Assembly (NCBI GenBank): GCA_004022145.1
Contig: RCNU01000001.1
Strand: one strand, 5' to 3'
Origin: Paecilomyces variotii
Lineage: Eukaryota
DNA: 64,000 bases
Shown here: positions 45,928 through 50,708 of the stretch, piece after piece
How positions within the stretch are numbered: position 1 is the first letter of the stretch
How the letters are laid out: the number at the start of each line of letters is the position of its first letter
Position numbers and translations under genes: made by a program
The notes under the pieces: model-generated
Seen by the model: only the letters and a program-made list of their open reading frames with translations
Told to the model about the DNA's origin: nothing
Databases searched by the model: none

Positions 45928-47491
45928 TATACCCTCCTACAGGAGAGAGCTGCGTCGCGAGGAAGGAGATAAAAGATGCAGTAATTGGATAGCAGCAATC
46001 GGTTGAAACCTATAGTAAGTAGCCAATGGGACAGAAGCTCCGACGTCGACAAATGCGCAAATAAAAGAATTTTTTGCTTCCCTAGGGAGCTAGATACGTC
46101 GTCTCAGAGTTGTCTGCAAGGTGGACACGTGAAATCGGATGTTCAGATAGATCGACATAGAAGCTTCGAGCTTGGAGAGAGACAATGACGTTTTATTTGT
46201 GACGGCTAGCGGATAGCTCTGTTGGTGCCAGCTTCAATAGCCCCATGAAAATATGCCAGGCAAAAAATCAGAAGAAGAACGAGAGAAAGCAATTGAGAGA
46301 GATGAAAATCACTCCAGATCGCAGGGCGTTATCATCAACAGCTCCGACGCCCTTACGGAAGTTTTGTGGGGTTTGCTGATAAGCTTGCCGTGGTTCCCAA
46401 GACCCGCTAAGTAGCAAGAGGGGAACAAACCGTGTGTACGGAGTAGTAATAACTATTTAACTATTTTTGCGGTACAAAGACAGGCGACCGCAAAATAATT
46501 ATTTTATCGCGCCAATTGCAAAGCCTTCAATAGGGAATGATACTGTAATACTTGGCATGAGGGGAGGTTGTTCTGTTCAGATGAAGTAGGTATTGGCGAG
46601 CAAACGTTGAGGGGGGACTGCTGTTATCGGAGGATTCTCATTCTTGAGGACCTCATCCATCACGCTTTGACTAATGAGAATCAGTATTGTAAGTTTGGAA
46701 AGATCTCAAGAAACTAGAGCGCCAAGTGTTCTTAGCATGTGCGCATGAGGTGGAACCTATCTTCCATGATGTCCATCTGATCTATACCATATCGAACTGC
46801 TAGTGCTCGTTGTGGGAGAGATAAGTACGCGGTTCTTGTTTATGACAGCACATATTTCCTGGGTAATACGTGATATAAACAGCCCGGGGGGATGATCGGA
46901 GGTTTGAGGAGGCTAGCAGTGAATAATAGTCCGAGCGCGATGTAGCGAGATGACCCCGTAATAATCGCTGCCGGCACTTGTGAATCCCACATCTACGGAG
47001 TAGTGTTATGGGACCTTCGCACAGAAATAATACTCGCGTGTAGACAGACCATTATCGATGAGAAGAGCTGCCAAGAGCAGTGATATAGCACACACACGAC
47101 TTGAAATAGATACTAGACTAATACTAGATATTATAATAATAAATCCAGGGGTATTTCACGAACACAAAGAAGTAGGGTTCCAACCGCCACCCTCCAGTGT
47201 GACGAGGCAACGTGGTGGTGGATTATGTCAGCTCCGCGGCGCGTTGACCTATAATCCTGCCTCCCCCACAGTACCTGAACGAAATTTACTCGAACAACCC
47301 CGCTGGACTGGACTGCCCGACCGGCTTGAAGGTACGTCTTAACACTCAGTTCCCGTTGTTTTCTGGTGATGGAAGAAGTAGACTTGAATCGTTCTATTGT
47401 TCTCTTACAAAACTGACCTCTTGCGCGGAATAGCTCCGACGGACGGACAATCCTTTCTTACCATCCCGGTCGCACACCAGCGTCGCCCAAG

Positions 47492-48974
47492 ATGAGCGCG
47501 CCTCAGGCGAACGAGGCGGAGAAGAACATCGAGATATGGAAGGTTAAGAAACTCATCAAGCGCCTTGAGGCGGCGCGTGGAAATGGCACGTCGATGATTT
47601 CGCTGATCATCCGTAAGTATATCCAGGGTTTCCAGACATCTTAACTTCGCCGCTGACTATAGCCCCTCCCCAGCCCCGAAGGACCAGGTGTCCCGAGCCG
47701 CGAAGATGTTGGCAGAAGAATTCGTATGTCTACTCTCACCGTTGAACCATACCCTTATACACCGGCTAACTGTTTCAAGGGAACTGCTTCCAACATCAAA
47801 TCGCGTGTGAACCGTCTCTCTGTCCTTTCCGCCATTACCTCCACCCAGCAGCGTCTCAAGCTCTACACCAGGGTCCCCCCGAACGGCCTCGTCATCTACT
47901 GTGGTGAAATTATCACTGCGGAAGGAAAGGAAAGGAAGATTAACATCGACTTCGAGCCTTTCAAGCCTATCAACACCTCCCTGTATCTTTGTGACAACAA
48001 GTTCCATACAGAGGCACTGAGCGAGCTGTTGGAATCGGACCAGAAGTTTGGTTTCATCATTATGGACGGAAACGGTGCTCTCTTTGGTACATTGAGTGGA
48101 AACACTAGAGAGATCGTCCACAAATTCTCCGTTGACCTGCCCAAGAAGCACGGACGTGGTGGTCAGTCTGCTCTGCGTTTCGCCCGTCTGCGAGAGGAGA
48201 AGCGTCACAACTATGTCCGCAAGGTTGCTGAACTTGCAGTTCAGAACTTCATCACCAATGACAAGGTCAATGTGGCGGGTCTGATTCTGGCCGGTTCTGC
48301 TGATTTCAAGAACGATCTGAACCAGTCTGACATGTTCGACAACCGCCTGCAATCAAAGGTCATCAAGGTCGTGGATGTTTCCTACGGTGGTGAGAACGGA
48401 TTCAACCAGGCTATTGAACTCGCTTCTGAGACTCTGGGCAACGTGAAGTTCATCCAGGAGAAGAAGCTGATCGGCAAGTATTTCGAAGAGATCAGTCAGG
48501 ACACTGGAAGAGTCTGCTACGGTATTGAGGATACTCTGAAGGCATTGGAGTTGGGTGCTGCGGAGATATTGATCGTGTACGAGAACCTTGATATCACTCG
48601 CTGGGTCCTGAAAAACTCCAACGGTGAGGAGATAATTCTCCACACTACCAAGGCGCAGGAGTCGAACCGAGAGCTTTTCATGGACAAGGAGACTGGCCAG
48701 GAGATGGAGATTGTCGAGCAGACATCCCTGTTGGAATGGCTGGCGGAGAAGTACAAGGATTTCGGCGCCACGCTAGAGTTCGTGTCCGACAAATCCAGCG
48801 AAGGAAACCAGTTCGTCAAAGGCTTCGGTGGTATCGGCGCGATCCTCCGTTACAAGGTCAACTTCGAACAACTTGCTGATTTCGATGATGAGGATGAATT
48901 CTATGATGGTACGTAACCTCATAGCGCGTTCTAGATTTTCACGACTATATGCTGACCATGTATGCCTAGATTGA
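47492..48974 (+). CDS. SUP45: Eukaryotic release factor 1 (exons 47492-47612, 47674-47723, 47780-48908, 48970-48974)
   Basis: [40 protein letters not shown]; spliced end EFYDD-TGA. Probable 5'UTR intron 47332-47433. Confidence 0.97.
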
Positions 48975-49143
48975 CGGTTTGGCAACCTCGCAGAGAGCGA
49001 GGAGGGAGGCCCAGAGATCCAGTCGACGGATACTCTGACGGATCGTCCGCTGGCACGCAAAGACGGCATCCATGTGATGCCTGAAGCTGCTGCCACGCGT
49101 ACCATGACGCCACCTAATCCGAGCTCTATCAAACTGCTCAAAG

Positions 49144-49194
49144 GTATGATCCGTTGTTCTAGCCGCAAGGCTAAGTTTGTCCATGTTGATGCAG
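49144..49194 (+). other. Putative 3'UTR intron of eRF1 (51 nt)
   Basis: AAG|GTATGA donor, GCTAAG branch-like site (imperfect), TGCAG acceptor, 169 nt downstream of the stop. Confidence 0.65.
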
Positions 49195-49698
49195 TGGAAA
49201 CTAACCAAGACCAGGACCATCCAAGCTCCGCGCTATGGAGACTTGTACTTACTAAGAGAACCCGCGGTCCATACTGAGCACAATAGAAATTTGAGGGGGA
49301 TTGTGAATTCGTTAAGAGTATCTGGTTTCTGTCCCAACAAGCTAGGCTGAGAAGGACCAGCGCCACAGTCTATCTTGGCTTGGTAGTTCCACAAATATTC
49401 CCCTGTATCCAAGAGACTGCAGAATTCAGCTATTTCGTTGACCTTCCGTCTTTTTATGCAGCGTATTTGCCGCTGCATTTCACAAATATGCAAACAGTCG
49501 GTCATTTCCCAAGTGTTGCACCTGCCTTCTTCTACCAGAGATCATCTGGCACTGTTGTGAACAGCCATTCAATGGAACGCTCATTACCAAGCACCCTGCT
49601 GCATCCAAGAGAATGGTCCATATATGATTGTATTGCTCGAGGCTTTTGGAAACAAAGAGATCCTTGCTTCCCACGTAGTCCCAGGTCTTTGCGCGTGT

Positions 49699-50708
49699 TC
49701 AGGAAATCTGCTCATCCCAAGTCCCCAGATTTCGGCAGCTCTCCGTGACCTTTCCTAGATCCTCCAGCAATTGACCAACAGTCTCGTCATTTGGAGAACT
49801 AGTAGTCTCACTGCATTCTACGAAGAAAACGTAGTGCCATGGCTTGCTCCGGCTTGGTCGGGTGTTAATGCTCGTAAGATTTTGACCATGTGTCTTGAAA
49901 ACAAGCAGAGCATCTGCAAGCGCCCCAGGAGAGGAATGATTGACCGTGAATGAGACAAGCGTTTTTCTTTTCGCAGGGGATTGTTCATTTTTCTCCGCGG
50001 ACCCAGCATTAGCCAGACTCGGGGGGTATGAGCTTGCAGTCTGTTCTGATCGAATATTCCTCACTATTAGAAACCTTGTCGTATTGTCATCTTTATCCTC
50101 AATGTTTGCCTCCAGAATATCGGCCCCGTGGTACTCCGCAGCAAAGCTGCTTGCAATCGCCGCACTTTGACCGGTCTCATCCCGTGCAGCAATCTCGGCG
50201 GCTTTTGACGTCGAAGACACATCTTGCTTCTCCACCCCCTTGAAGTGCTCGGAGAGAAACTTCTCACACTGGCCCCAGGCCTGGGGGTGCGTATATAGTT
50301 TATTTATGAAATCATAACTGCCAGATGCGGAGGGTGCGGTGCCTTTTCGAGCCAGAAGACAGTGATGCACGGTAAGATAGTACTCGCCGCAGATCTCAAT
50401 ATCACTATATACCCGGTCGCGGTCAGCTAAGAGGTCCAGGGTCTGGACAACTGAGCCATTCGTCGAATTCTCAAAGGGGATCGCGGCGTAATCAGCGTCG
50501 TTCTGTTGGACCGCGGAGAAGATATCGGCAAATGTTGGGCAGGGGGTCAATTCAGCTGAGCGACCAAAACATTCAAGTGCGGCCTGTAATGAGACGAGGA
50601 GTTAGCACTACGGGTTATATATTGTCTTTGTTGAGCAGGGCATAAATTTCTTACCTGATGAGAGAAGGATGCCGCGGGGCCCAGGAACGCAACCCGGAGT
50701 CGCTGCAT
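49699..50708 (-). CDS. PHA2: Prephenate dehydratase (2 exons)
   Basis: RVAFLGPAASFSHQAA, PFENSTNGSV, THPQAWGQC, SSTSKAA, NTTRFL, PGALADAL..F, NLTSINTRP. Confidence 0.95.

Follow-up and report, generated by a model that had tools for sequence, protein, structure and literature searches.

Architecture pointing to an autoregulatory circuit of stop codon readthrough and nonsense-mediated decay at the eRF1 gene of Paecilomyces variotii

Results

Gene Structure and Splicing of the eRF1 Locus

In a stretch of 64,000 nucleotides from Paecilomyces variotii (contig RCNU01000001.1 of assembly GCA_004022145.1; this whole stretch is referred to as the window), we analyzed the gene for the translation termination factor eRF1 together with the region behind its stop codon, for which a first-pass annotation had proposed autoregulation by readthrough and nonsense-mediated decay (NMD). 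The coding sequence of 434 codons plus stop extends on the plus strand from the ATG at 47492 to 48974 and is composed of the exons 47492-47612, 47674-47723, 47780-48908 and 48970-48974. All three coding introns (47613-47673, 47724-47779 and 48909-48969) are removed at GT..AG joints in one contig each of the public sequencing runs X1, X2 and X7, which derive from three studies, and the last of them lies where it had been annotated, as established by sequence reading and the list of open reading frames. Exon 3 matches the Pfam families eRF1_1 (E = 4.5e-15), eRF1_2 (E = 6.2e-49) and eRF1_3 (E = 1.4e-34), each above cut-off, and in a scan of metagenome contigs the encoded protein was found to be 81-94% identical to fungal-type eRF1 loci. 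Judged by these matches, the gene is that of the termination factor eRF1 of a filamentous fungus.

The stretch is contained in 19 public runs, from which four belonging to four studies (X1, X2, X6 and X7) were compared. The label 'RNA? (a guess)' is attached to X1, X2 and X7, the last of which also has another organism label, and X6 alone is declared RNA. Besides the joints of the coding introns, the X1, X2 and X7 contigs show a fourth one leading from 49141 to 49213 (recorded as 'skips 71, GT..AG (cut +2)', with 173 letters on the shorter side). The corresponding 71-nt intron in the untranslated region at the 3' end (3'UTR) occupies positions 49144-49214 and has a GTATGA 5' splice site, a CTAAC branch site at 49201-49205 and a CAG 3' splice site. 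Hence, of the frame-preserving 51-nt intron predicted by the first-pass annotation at 49144-49194, the 5' splice site and its distance of 169 nt from the stop are correct, whereas the 3' splice site, the length and the preservation of the frame are not: the AG used is at 49213-49214, 20 nt beyond the predicted one at 49193-49194, and the intron shifts the frame because 71 is not a multiple of three. A junction from 49143 to 49195, as expected from the 51-nt intron, was found in none of the contigs from the four runs, although contigs drop rare forms and a minor isoform of this kind is possible. When compared to the closest relative (locus L002), the 5' splice site and the downstream exon are conserved, while the intron itself has diverged, including insertions and deletions. 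Spliced introns lying more than about 50 nt past a stop are an NMD-inducing feature of 3'UTRs, and the intron at 49144-49214 is of this kind.

The declared metatranscriptomic run X6 covers 47250-50250 of the window by a single unspliced contig (16,998 nt in total, with 18 differences), which is uninformative on splicing and probably represents DNA of another strain.

Stop Codon Context and Related eRF1 Loci

For comparative analysis, metagenome contigs were scanned with eRF1 exon 3, resulting in 599 pattern matches, 570 of which encode relatives; the best 80 were kept. The group compared comprises the window and 45 of these loci (46 sequences, 43 distinct), termed fungal-type solely by their likeness to the window's gene. 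The other 35 loci encode eRF1 of other eukaryote types (70-81% identity, mostly on short contigs of other eukaryotes) and lack the stop-plus-hairpin pattern described below, which is present in the window and 43 loci.

As annotated, the eRF1 coding sequence ends with the codon GAT and a TGA at 48972-48974 that is followed by CGG, giving the stop context TGA-CGG at 48972-48977. All 46 sequences of the group share this stop (GAT TGA, with an invariant ATTGA), and the base behind it is C in 42 of the 43 distinct sequences, the commonest hexamers following TGA being CGGTTT and CAGTTT with seven occurrences each. The 35 other loci, in contrast, stop at TAA (19), TAG (8) or TGA (8). With such a context, the eRF1 stop would be weak and prone to readthrough, as needed at the start of a readthrough/NMD circuit. 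Recoding of the UGA to selenocysteine was considered as well and set aside, since fungi are not known to have the selenocysteine machinery.

Among the 35 other loci, six (L059, L066, L069, L071, L077 and L078) end in TGA-C followed by 17-48 open codons, and one of these reads TGA CAA TTT, resembling the context of the tobacco mosaic virus type as printed in the available excerpts of PMC13517186. These six might represent circuits of the plant type.

Hairpins Behind the Stop Codon

Two hairpins follow the stop, both at the positions annotated. Hairpin 1 (48986-49002), supported by folding, alignment and a covariance model, starts 11 nt behind the stop and consists of the 6-bp stem CCTCGC/GCGAGG with a 5-nt loop. 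Hairpin 2 (49012-49037), supported by folding and alignment, is formed by CAGAGATCC/GGAT-A-CTCTG, amounting to 9 bp with one bulge. Folding energies are -9.4 kcal/mol for hairpin 1, which is part of the minimum-energy fold, and -9.6 kcal/mol for hairpin 2. For the 79-nt region 48972-49050, the folding energy is -32.3 kcal/mol (z = -2.25), which was reached by 6 of 200 shuffled sequences.

When the sequences are aligned without gaps, 44 of 44 have the CTCG of the hairpin 1 core in identical columns, and the spacer between stop and hairpin is therefore fixed at 11 nt. Two spacer classes suggested by a regular-expression count (11 nt in 24 sequences, 9 nt in 17) turned out to be an artefact of the pattern, the alignment showing only one register. 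Base pairs of hairpin 1 were counted in 33 of the 46 sequences (31 distinct), all having 5-nt loops, after excluding nine sequences with 8-nt loops, L031 and L032, and the duplicates L003 and L015; MAFFT had misplaced the 3' arm in the nine long-loop sequences and misaligned L031 and L032 as well. In the 31 distinct sequences, four pairs are invariant and the innermost pair is always formed, as CG in 22, UG in five and UA in four cases. Altogether 88.5% of the cells are paired, compared to 36-50% when partners are slid. The Leu and Glu codons within the stem are always CTC and GAG, whereas the loop varies freely in sequence, and loop lengths differ by multiples of three.

The 33 rows served to train a covariance model, and a search of 412,658 bases on both strands with this model yielded 44 matches at the eRF1 stop (window and 43 loci) with E values from 7e-9 to 0.037, including the nine long-loop sequences outside the model's training rows. 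Not a single match was obtained in the 35 other eRF1 loci. Seven further matches are either reverse-strand copies of the same palindrome (four) or have E values of 0.6-0.95 (three). The intron-poor loci L031 and L032 have another 5-bp hairpin (GGCTC/GAGCC), located further from the stop, in place of hairpin 1 and have kept TGA-C and the open frame.

All 12 aligned relatives have retained CAGA(N)/(N)TCTG, the base of hairpin 2. The fifth pair of this hairpin is GC in four, UA in two, AU in one and CG in one of them and is broken in the remaining four, with changes on both sides in four relatives. In L002, two adjacent pairs are altered on both sides, as read by eye from the alignment. L031 and L032, which are not among the 12, also have the CAGAG/CTCTG base when read directly, while folding pairs it in L032 only. 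The sequence TGACGG occurs a second time, out of frame, at 49036-49041 of the window, where hairpin 2 contributes its final two bases and the adjoining sequence the other four, and CTGACGG at the 3' end of this hairpin is conserved in many relatives. The minimum-energy fold also has an outer stem, formed by 48973-48981 and 49040-49048, whose conservation in L002 was not evident by eye.

In several relatives, a conserved (T)C(T/C)TC past hairpin 2 offers an alternative partner for the 3' arm of hairpin 1 (GAGGA), the pairing of both enclosing hairpin 2. In the 12 sequences compared for this pairing, which spans about 25-80 nt behind the stop (L004, L005, L007, L009, L011, L018, L021, L025, L038, L040, L043 and L044), the five core pairs hold in 9-12 sequences and 65.7% of the cells are paired, with one double change as weak covariation. 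The minimum-energy fold selects this pairing in about 12 of 43 loci, and it is absent from the window. It may represent an alternative fold or an extended, forked structure.

Coding Signature of the Read-On Frame

In the genomic sequence, the frame behind the eRF1 stop is open for 100 codons up to the TGA at 49275-49277, as had been annotated. In the spliced mRNA, however, it is shorter than the extension of about 84 residues initially deduced: 56 codons (48975-49142) and the first base of a split codon (49143) precede the 3'UTR intron, and the remainder of the split codon (49215-49216), 12 further codons and a TAA at 49253-49255 follow in the second part (49215-49255). The spliced read-on frame thus comprises 69 codons, and its second stop ends 41 nt behind the junction. 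A ribosome reading on in the spliced mRNA would be carried across this junction, which is what a readthrough/NMD circuit calls for.

Within the first 48 codons past the stop, this frame does not contain a single stop in any of the 43 distinct sequences, whereas 91 and 92 stops are found in frames +1 and +2, which are open in only three and four of the 43 sequences, respectively. For 19 pairs of sequences, using each locus once, the ratio of nonsynonymous to synonymous substitution rates (dN/dS) was determined; in the read-on frame, 18 pairs were usable, giving a median of 0.51 with 17 of the 18 values below 1, compared to 0.73 and 0.94 in the shifted frames. Differences at the three codon positions amount to 426, 394 and 569. 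Taken together, these substitution patterns indicate that the extension is evolving as coding sequence. Moreover, conservation begins at the first codon past the stop, while the first in-frame ATG of the window is codon 35, which fits readthrough rather than reinitiation.

This coding signature bears on a simpler explanation, by which the 3'UTR intron and a long 3'UTR would just damp eRF1 expression via NMD, with the hairpins serving stability, localization or protein binding and the open frame arising as a by-product without any programmed readthrough. The 3'UTR intron is indeed real, the 3'UTR has perhaps a length of about 550 nt, for which there is a weak hint, and the hairpin stems are conserved by sequence more than by covariation. 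Yet, damping without readthrough is contradicted by the extension behaving like coding sequence, as is evident from a frame open in 43 of 43 distinct sequences compared to three and four in the other forward frames, from the third-position excess of differences and from the synonymous codon turnover in the conserved peptide described below. Loop lengths of hairpin 1 differing by multiples of three and a UGA-C that almost all members of the group, unlike the 35 other eRF1 loci, have in common speak against this explanation as well, making it very improbable.

Another way of reaching the extension would be a bypass of the stop by alternative splicing, since the TGA lies only 2 nt past the 3' splice site of the last coding intron and an AG at 48992-48993, within the hairpin 1 loop, would allow in-frame joining of exon 3 to the extension. 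Such a bypass cannot be general, however, because 23 of the 46 sequences do not have an intron before the stop and have nevertheless kept the stop context, the hairpin and the extension. In addition, the loop sequence of hairpin 1 is variable and all three spliced contigs use the site at 48969, though rare forms are dropped from contigs. We therefore regard splicing around the stop as even less credible than mere damping.

Tail Ends and Predicted Introns in Related Loci

The 3'UTRs of 42 distinct sequences were scanned for splice sites, requiring the 3' site to be at least 7 nt behind the branch A, a procedure that recovers the RNA-supported intron of the window. Candidate 3'UTR introns were predicted in 34 sequences, and the second stop of 22 of these falls within a range from 35 nt ahead of the junction to 58 nt past it. 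Hence, in line with the architecture first proposed for the window, stop context, hairpins and open frame are conserved in the eRF1 3' regions of the relatives, and an intron is usually predicted at or just behind the second stop. RNA-like support for one of these predictions comes from L037, a 2-kb contig: the 58-nt intron predicted for L040, its genomic relative, is precisely missing from it, and the tails of both end alike. By comparison with the relatives, the architecture of stop, hairpin and frame is well beyond chance.

Three layouts of the tail can be distinguished. In the window and in L001, L002, L006, L008 and L043, the frame crosses the junction into a conserved peptide. In the second layout, the extension ends with RPSPLRSVMTAS or similar 9-27 nt before the predicted junction, and in the third it has only 48-50 residues with ARL, AHL or SRL at the end, its stop lying 29-35 nt ahead of the predicted junction. 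A terminal motif, [LVQ]R[NSHA][VMTSI], which was defined after seeing the data, is present within the last 18 residues in 23 of the 42 distinct sequences but in only five of 297 control pieces of open reading frames. In 16 distinct sequences picked for PSP(L/Q)R, each of the residues P, S, P, L and R is held through 3-5 codons, including AGC, AGT and TCG for Ser as well as CGN and AGG for Arg. The matching peptide of the window (GPSKLRAM...) is found only in the RNA-supported spliced frame; likewise, in the other five loci of the first layout the motif appears exclusively after splicing, although intron lengths differ modulo 3.

Endings resembling a peroxisomal targeting signal type 1 (PTS1), namely ARL, AHL or SRL, occur in seven of the 42 sequences (L005, L044, L011, L012, L027, L029 and L030). 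In these tails the last two codons are always TTG TAA, located 29-35 nt before the predicted 5' splice site, so that the sequence TTGTAAG could instead be a conserved nucleotide element. A PTS1 function was rejected for the window, where the extension ends with ...TCTY and not with [SAC][KRH][LM], SKL being present only internally.

These tails raise the possibility that the main purpose of readthrough is a C-terminally extended eRF1 isoform with a functional tail, for example for targeting, turnover, binding or termination at the second stop, with NMD being secondary. This would be compatible with a circuit and would explain amino acid selection on the tail (dN/dS of 0.51), the post hoc motif (23 of 42 tails versus five of 297 controls) with its residues kept through 3-5 codons, and the restriction of this motif to the spliced frame in the window, L001, L002, L006, L008 and L043. 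In contrast, a Pfam search with the read-on tail gave no match, the tail is otherwise poorly conserved with lengths from 48 to about 140 residues, and an NMD circuit, but not an isoform function, accounts for a second stop that is constantly placed at the junction. As the main purpose, an extended isoform accordingly seems unlikely to us.

Discussion

A Proposed Self-Sensing Circuit

The level of eRF1 sets the frequency of readthrough at every stop codon, and how a cell measures this level is a basic question. For the gene described here, we consider it likely that it carries a self-sensing autoregulatory circuit of readthrough and NMD, hence supporting the interpretation of the first-pass annotation with corrected coordinates of the intron (49144-49214) and a corrected length of the extension (69 codons). 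In this circuit, the coding region would end in a weak UGA-C stop with a conserved hairpin 11 nt further on and a second one thereafter, and removal of the intron that begins 169 nt past the stop would deposit an exon-junction complex in the 3'UTR about 145 nt downstream of the UGA. When eRF1 is plentiful, termination would occur at the UGA, the complex would remain and the mRNA would be degraded by NMD. When eRF1 is scarce, a near-cognate tRNA would read the UGA and 69 more codons would be translated across the junction; the ribosome would clear the complex and stop at the UAA at 49253-49255, the mRNA would be spared, and more eRF1 would be made by normal termination on the stabilized message. 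With the UGA occupying the A site, hairpin 1 would be positioned at the entrance of the mRNA channel. Observed are the structure of the gene, the splicing of its 3'UTR intron and the fact that stop context, hairpins, open coding frame and position of the second stop relative to the junction are conserved, whereas we infer the readthrough, its stimulation by hairpins, junction-dependent NMD in this fungus and the response to the eRF1 level from the architecture and from published cases.

Several points weigh against this interpretation or limit it. The support for the circuit is architectural. The RNA labels of X1, X2 and X7 are guesses, the only declared RNA run, X6, is unspliced, and the RNA evidence consists of contigs, which do not provide isoform ratios, strands or RNA ends. 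In hairpin 1, covariation comes from one pair only and four pairs do not vary; stem conservation may therefore be partly attributable to the encoded peptide or to a sequence-specific binder. The amino acid conservation of the extension exceeds what a circuit alone needs. Introns of the relatives are predicted, with eight of 42 sequences lacking a candidate and 12 of 34 showing other geometries, and the loci are related to each other, so that counts do not represent independent events.

Comparison With Known Systems

Of the two precedents invoked for feedback of this kind on eRF1, the plant case can be traced to its source, while the one from Neurospora crassa is known to us by title. In plants, stop codon readthrough protects the eRF1-1 mRNA from NMD triggered by its own 3'UTR, establishing negative feedback (Nyiko et al., Nucleic Acids Research 2017, PMC5397192). 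According to the available excerpts of this article, exon-junction complexes sit 20-24 nt before the junction, ribosomes clear these complexes only from the coding sequence and from the initial 20-25 nt within the 3'UTR, and NMD is triggered by 3'UTR introns in certain filamentous fungi. The window thus shares with plant eRF1-1 the readthrough protection from 3'UTR-triggered NMD, as proposed here, albeit in a different kingdom; a word search of that article's text found neither 'stem-loop' nor 'hairpin', whereas two conserved hairpins follow the stop in the window. For N. crassa, autoregulation of eRF1 by readthrough and NMD dependent on a 3'UTR intron is stated in the title of Kurilla, Szoke, Auber, Kaldi and Silhavy (FEBS Lett 2020), as cited in excerpts of PMC10578600 and PMC9809470, and going by this title another organism combines a leaky stop of this gene with an intron in the 3'UTR and NMD logic. 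In the window, the intron interrupts the extension and the frame crosses the junction, whereas in many other loci the second stop is located 9-35 nt before the predicted junction. It is our guess that loci with extensions ending with RPSPLRSVMTAS and the like include relatives of N. crassa. The authors of the Neurospora study are said to have proposed similar circuits for many fungi.

The stop and its surroundings also resemble viral readthrough signals of type II, which combine UGACGG or UGACUA with a structure whose start lies about 8-13 nt past the stop, and in the window an 11-nt spacer is followed by hairpin 1. As stated in the available excerpts of PMC13517186, a review of 2026, UGACGG is a type II viral readthrough hexanucleotide and requires a downstream stem-loop in both Venezuelan equine encephalitis virus (VEEV) and Colorado tick fever virus (CTFV), no hexanucleotide was more efficient than UGACAG in one assay, the amino acids inserted at UGA are mostly Arg, Cys or Trp, and the mRNA entry channel is filled by the 11-12 nt that follow the codon in the A site. 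The first nine letters of the site in the window, including UGACGG, are identical to those of the VEEV site printed there, and UGACAG, reported as the most efficient hexanucleotide, is common among the other loci. In these excerpts, viral type II structures start at +9 to +16 (window, +15) and are extended, with 78-177 nt, whereas the stems of the window are short (6 and 9 bp), belong to a cellular gene and are putative stimulators. As a tentative and still rather doubtful proposal, the eRF1 stop of filamentous fungi might be regarded as a cellular counterpart of the viral type II signals, having UGA-CGG or UGA-CAG, a hairpin at 11 nt and a second hairpin; separately, and with the same reserve, its tail might be more than a spacer and end in a selected peptide, (P)S(P/K)LR(S/N/A)(V/M)... 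Located within the last 18 residues before a second stop that lies at the last exon junction or up to 35 nt before it, this peptide could act in the exit tunnel on termination at that stop, adding a second eRF1-dependent step, or it could decide the fate of the extended eRF1, with a PTS1-like tripeptide taking its place in some lineages.

A release factor sensing its own level at a stop codon within its own mRNA has a bacterial parallel in RF2 (prfB), which is autoregulated by +1 frameshifting at an in-frame UGA. There, recoding is by frameshifting and is needed for making the factor, whereas readthrough and protection of the mRNA are proposed for the window. Besides, cryptic peroxisomal targeting by readthrough has been described in fungi (Freitag 2012; Stiebler 2014; both as cited in the excerpts of PMC5397192). 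In these cases, readthrough of a UGA-C adds a short tail, and PTS1-like endings are likewise found in the seven of 42 related eRF1 extensions listed above, but not in the window with its ...TCTY end.

While the proposed eRF1 circuit itself is of an already known type, the conserved hairpin and the extension peptide may be undescribed. A full-text literature search, which did not cover Kurilla et al. (2020) and Zhang and Sachs (2015), found neither a conserved stem-loop nor a conserved extension behind a fungal eRF1 stop; a passage on Pezizomycotina in PMC5009743 proved to concern a different gene. The window provides an RNA-supported example beyond Neurospora and plants. In the comparison with 45 loci, covering a wide range of fungal-type eRF1 genes, the layout is kept as a unit: UGA-C is followed by a hairpin whose spacing is fixed and by a frame that is open and under selection, with the second stop placed at the last junction. 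This conservation gives independent backing to the published model, and the hairpins, the intron at 49144-49214 and the terminal peptide are precise elements for mutation. If hairpin and peptide have not been described yet, they would constitute new parts, the hairpin as the cellular equivalent of stimulators of viral readthrough and the peptide as a sign that the read-on tail has its own function.

Additional Features of the Locus

Upstream of the start codon, an intron of 102 nt in the 5' untranslated region of the eRF1 gene is suggested at 47332-47433 (plus strand), with GT..AG borders and a CTGAC at 47412-47416. It is indicated by loose ends of 14-16 letters in contigs from X1 and X2, which are located before 47432/47434 and match 47319-47332, giving this intron weak support.

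Behind the second stop, the remainder of the 3'UTR (49256-49593, plus strand) reaches at least to 49593, where the spliced X2 contig ends. Cover by X2 is absent from 49593 to 49856, and although contigs cannot show RNA ends, this gives a weak hint at a spliced eRF1 3'UTR of about 550 nt. Convergent to eRF1, a gene at 49702-50601 on the minus strand encodes a prephenate dehydratase (Pfam PDT, E = 4.6e-56; the match to the ACT domain is weak). RNA contigs of X1 and X7 continue from the eRF1 3'UTR into this gene, and the 3' ends of both transcripts may therefore overlap.

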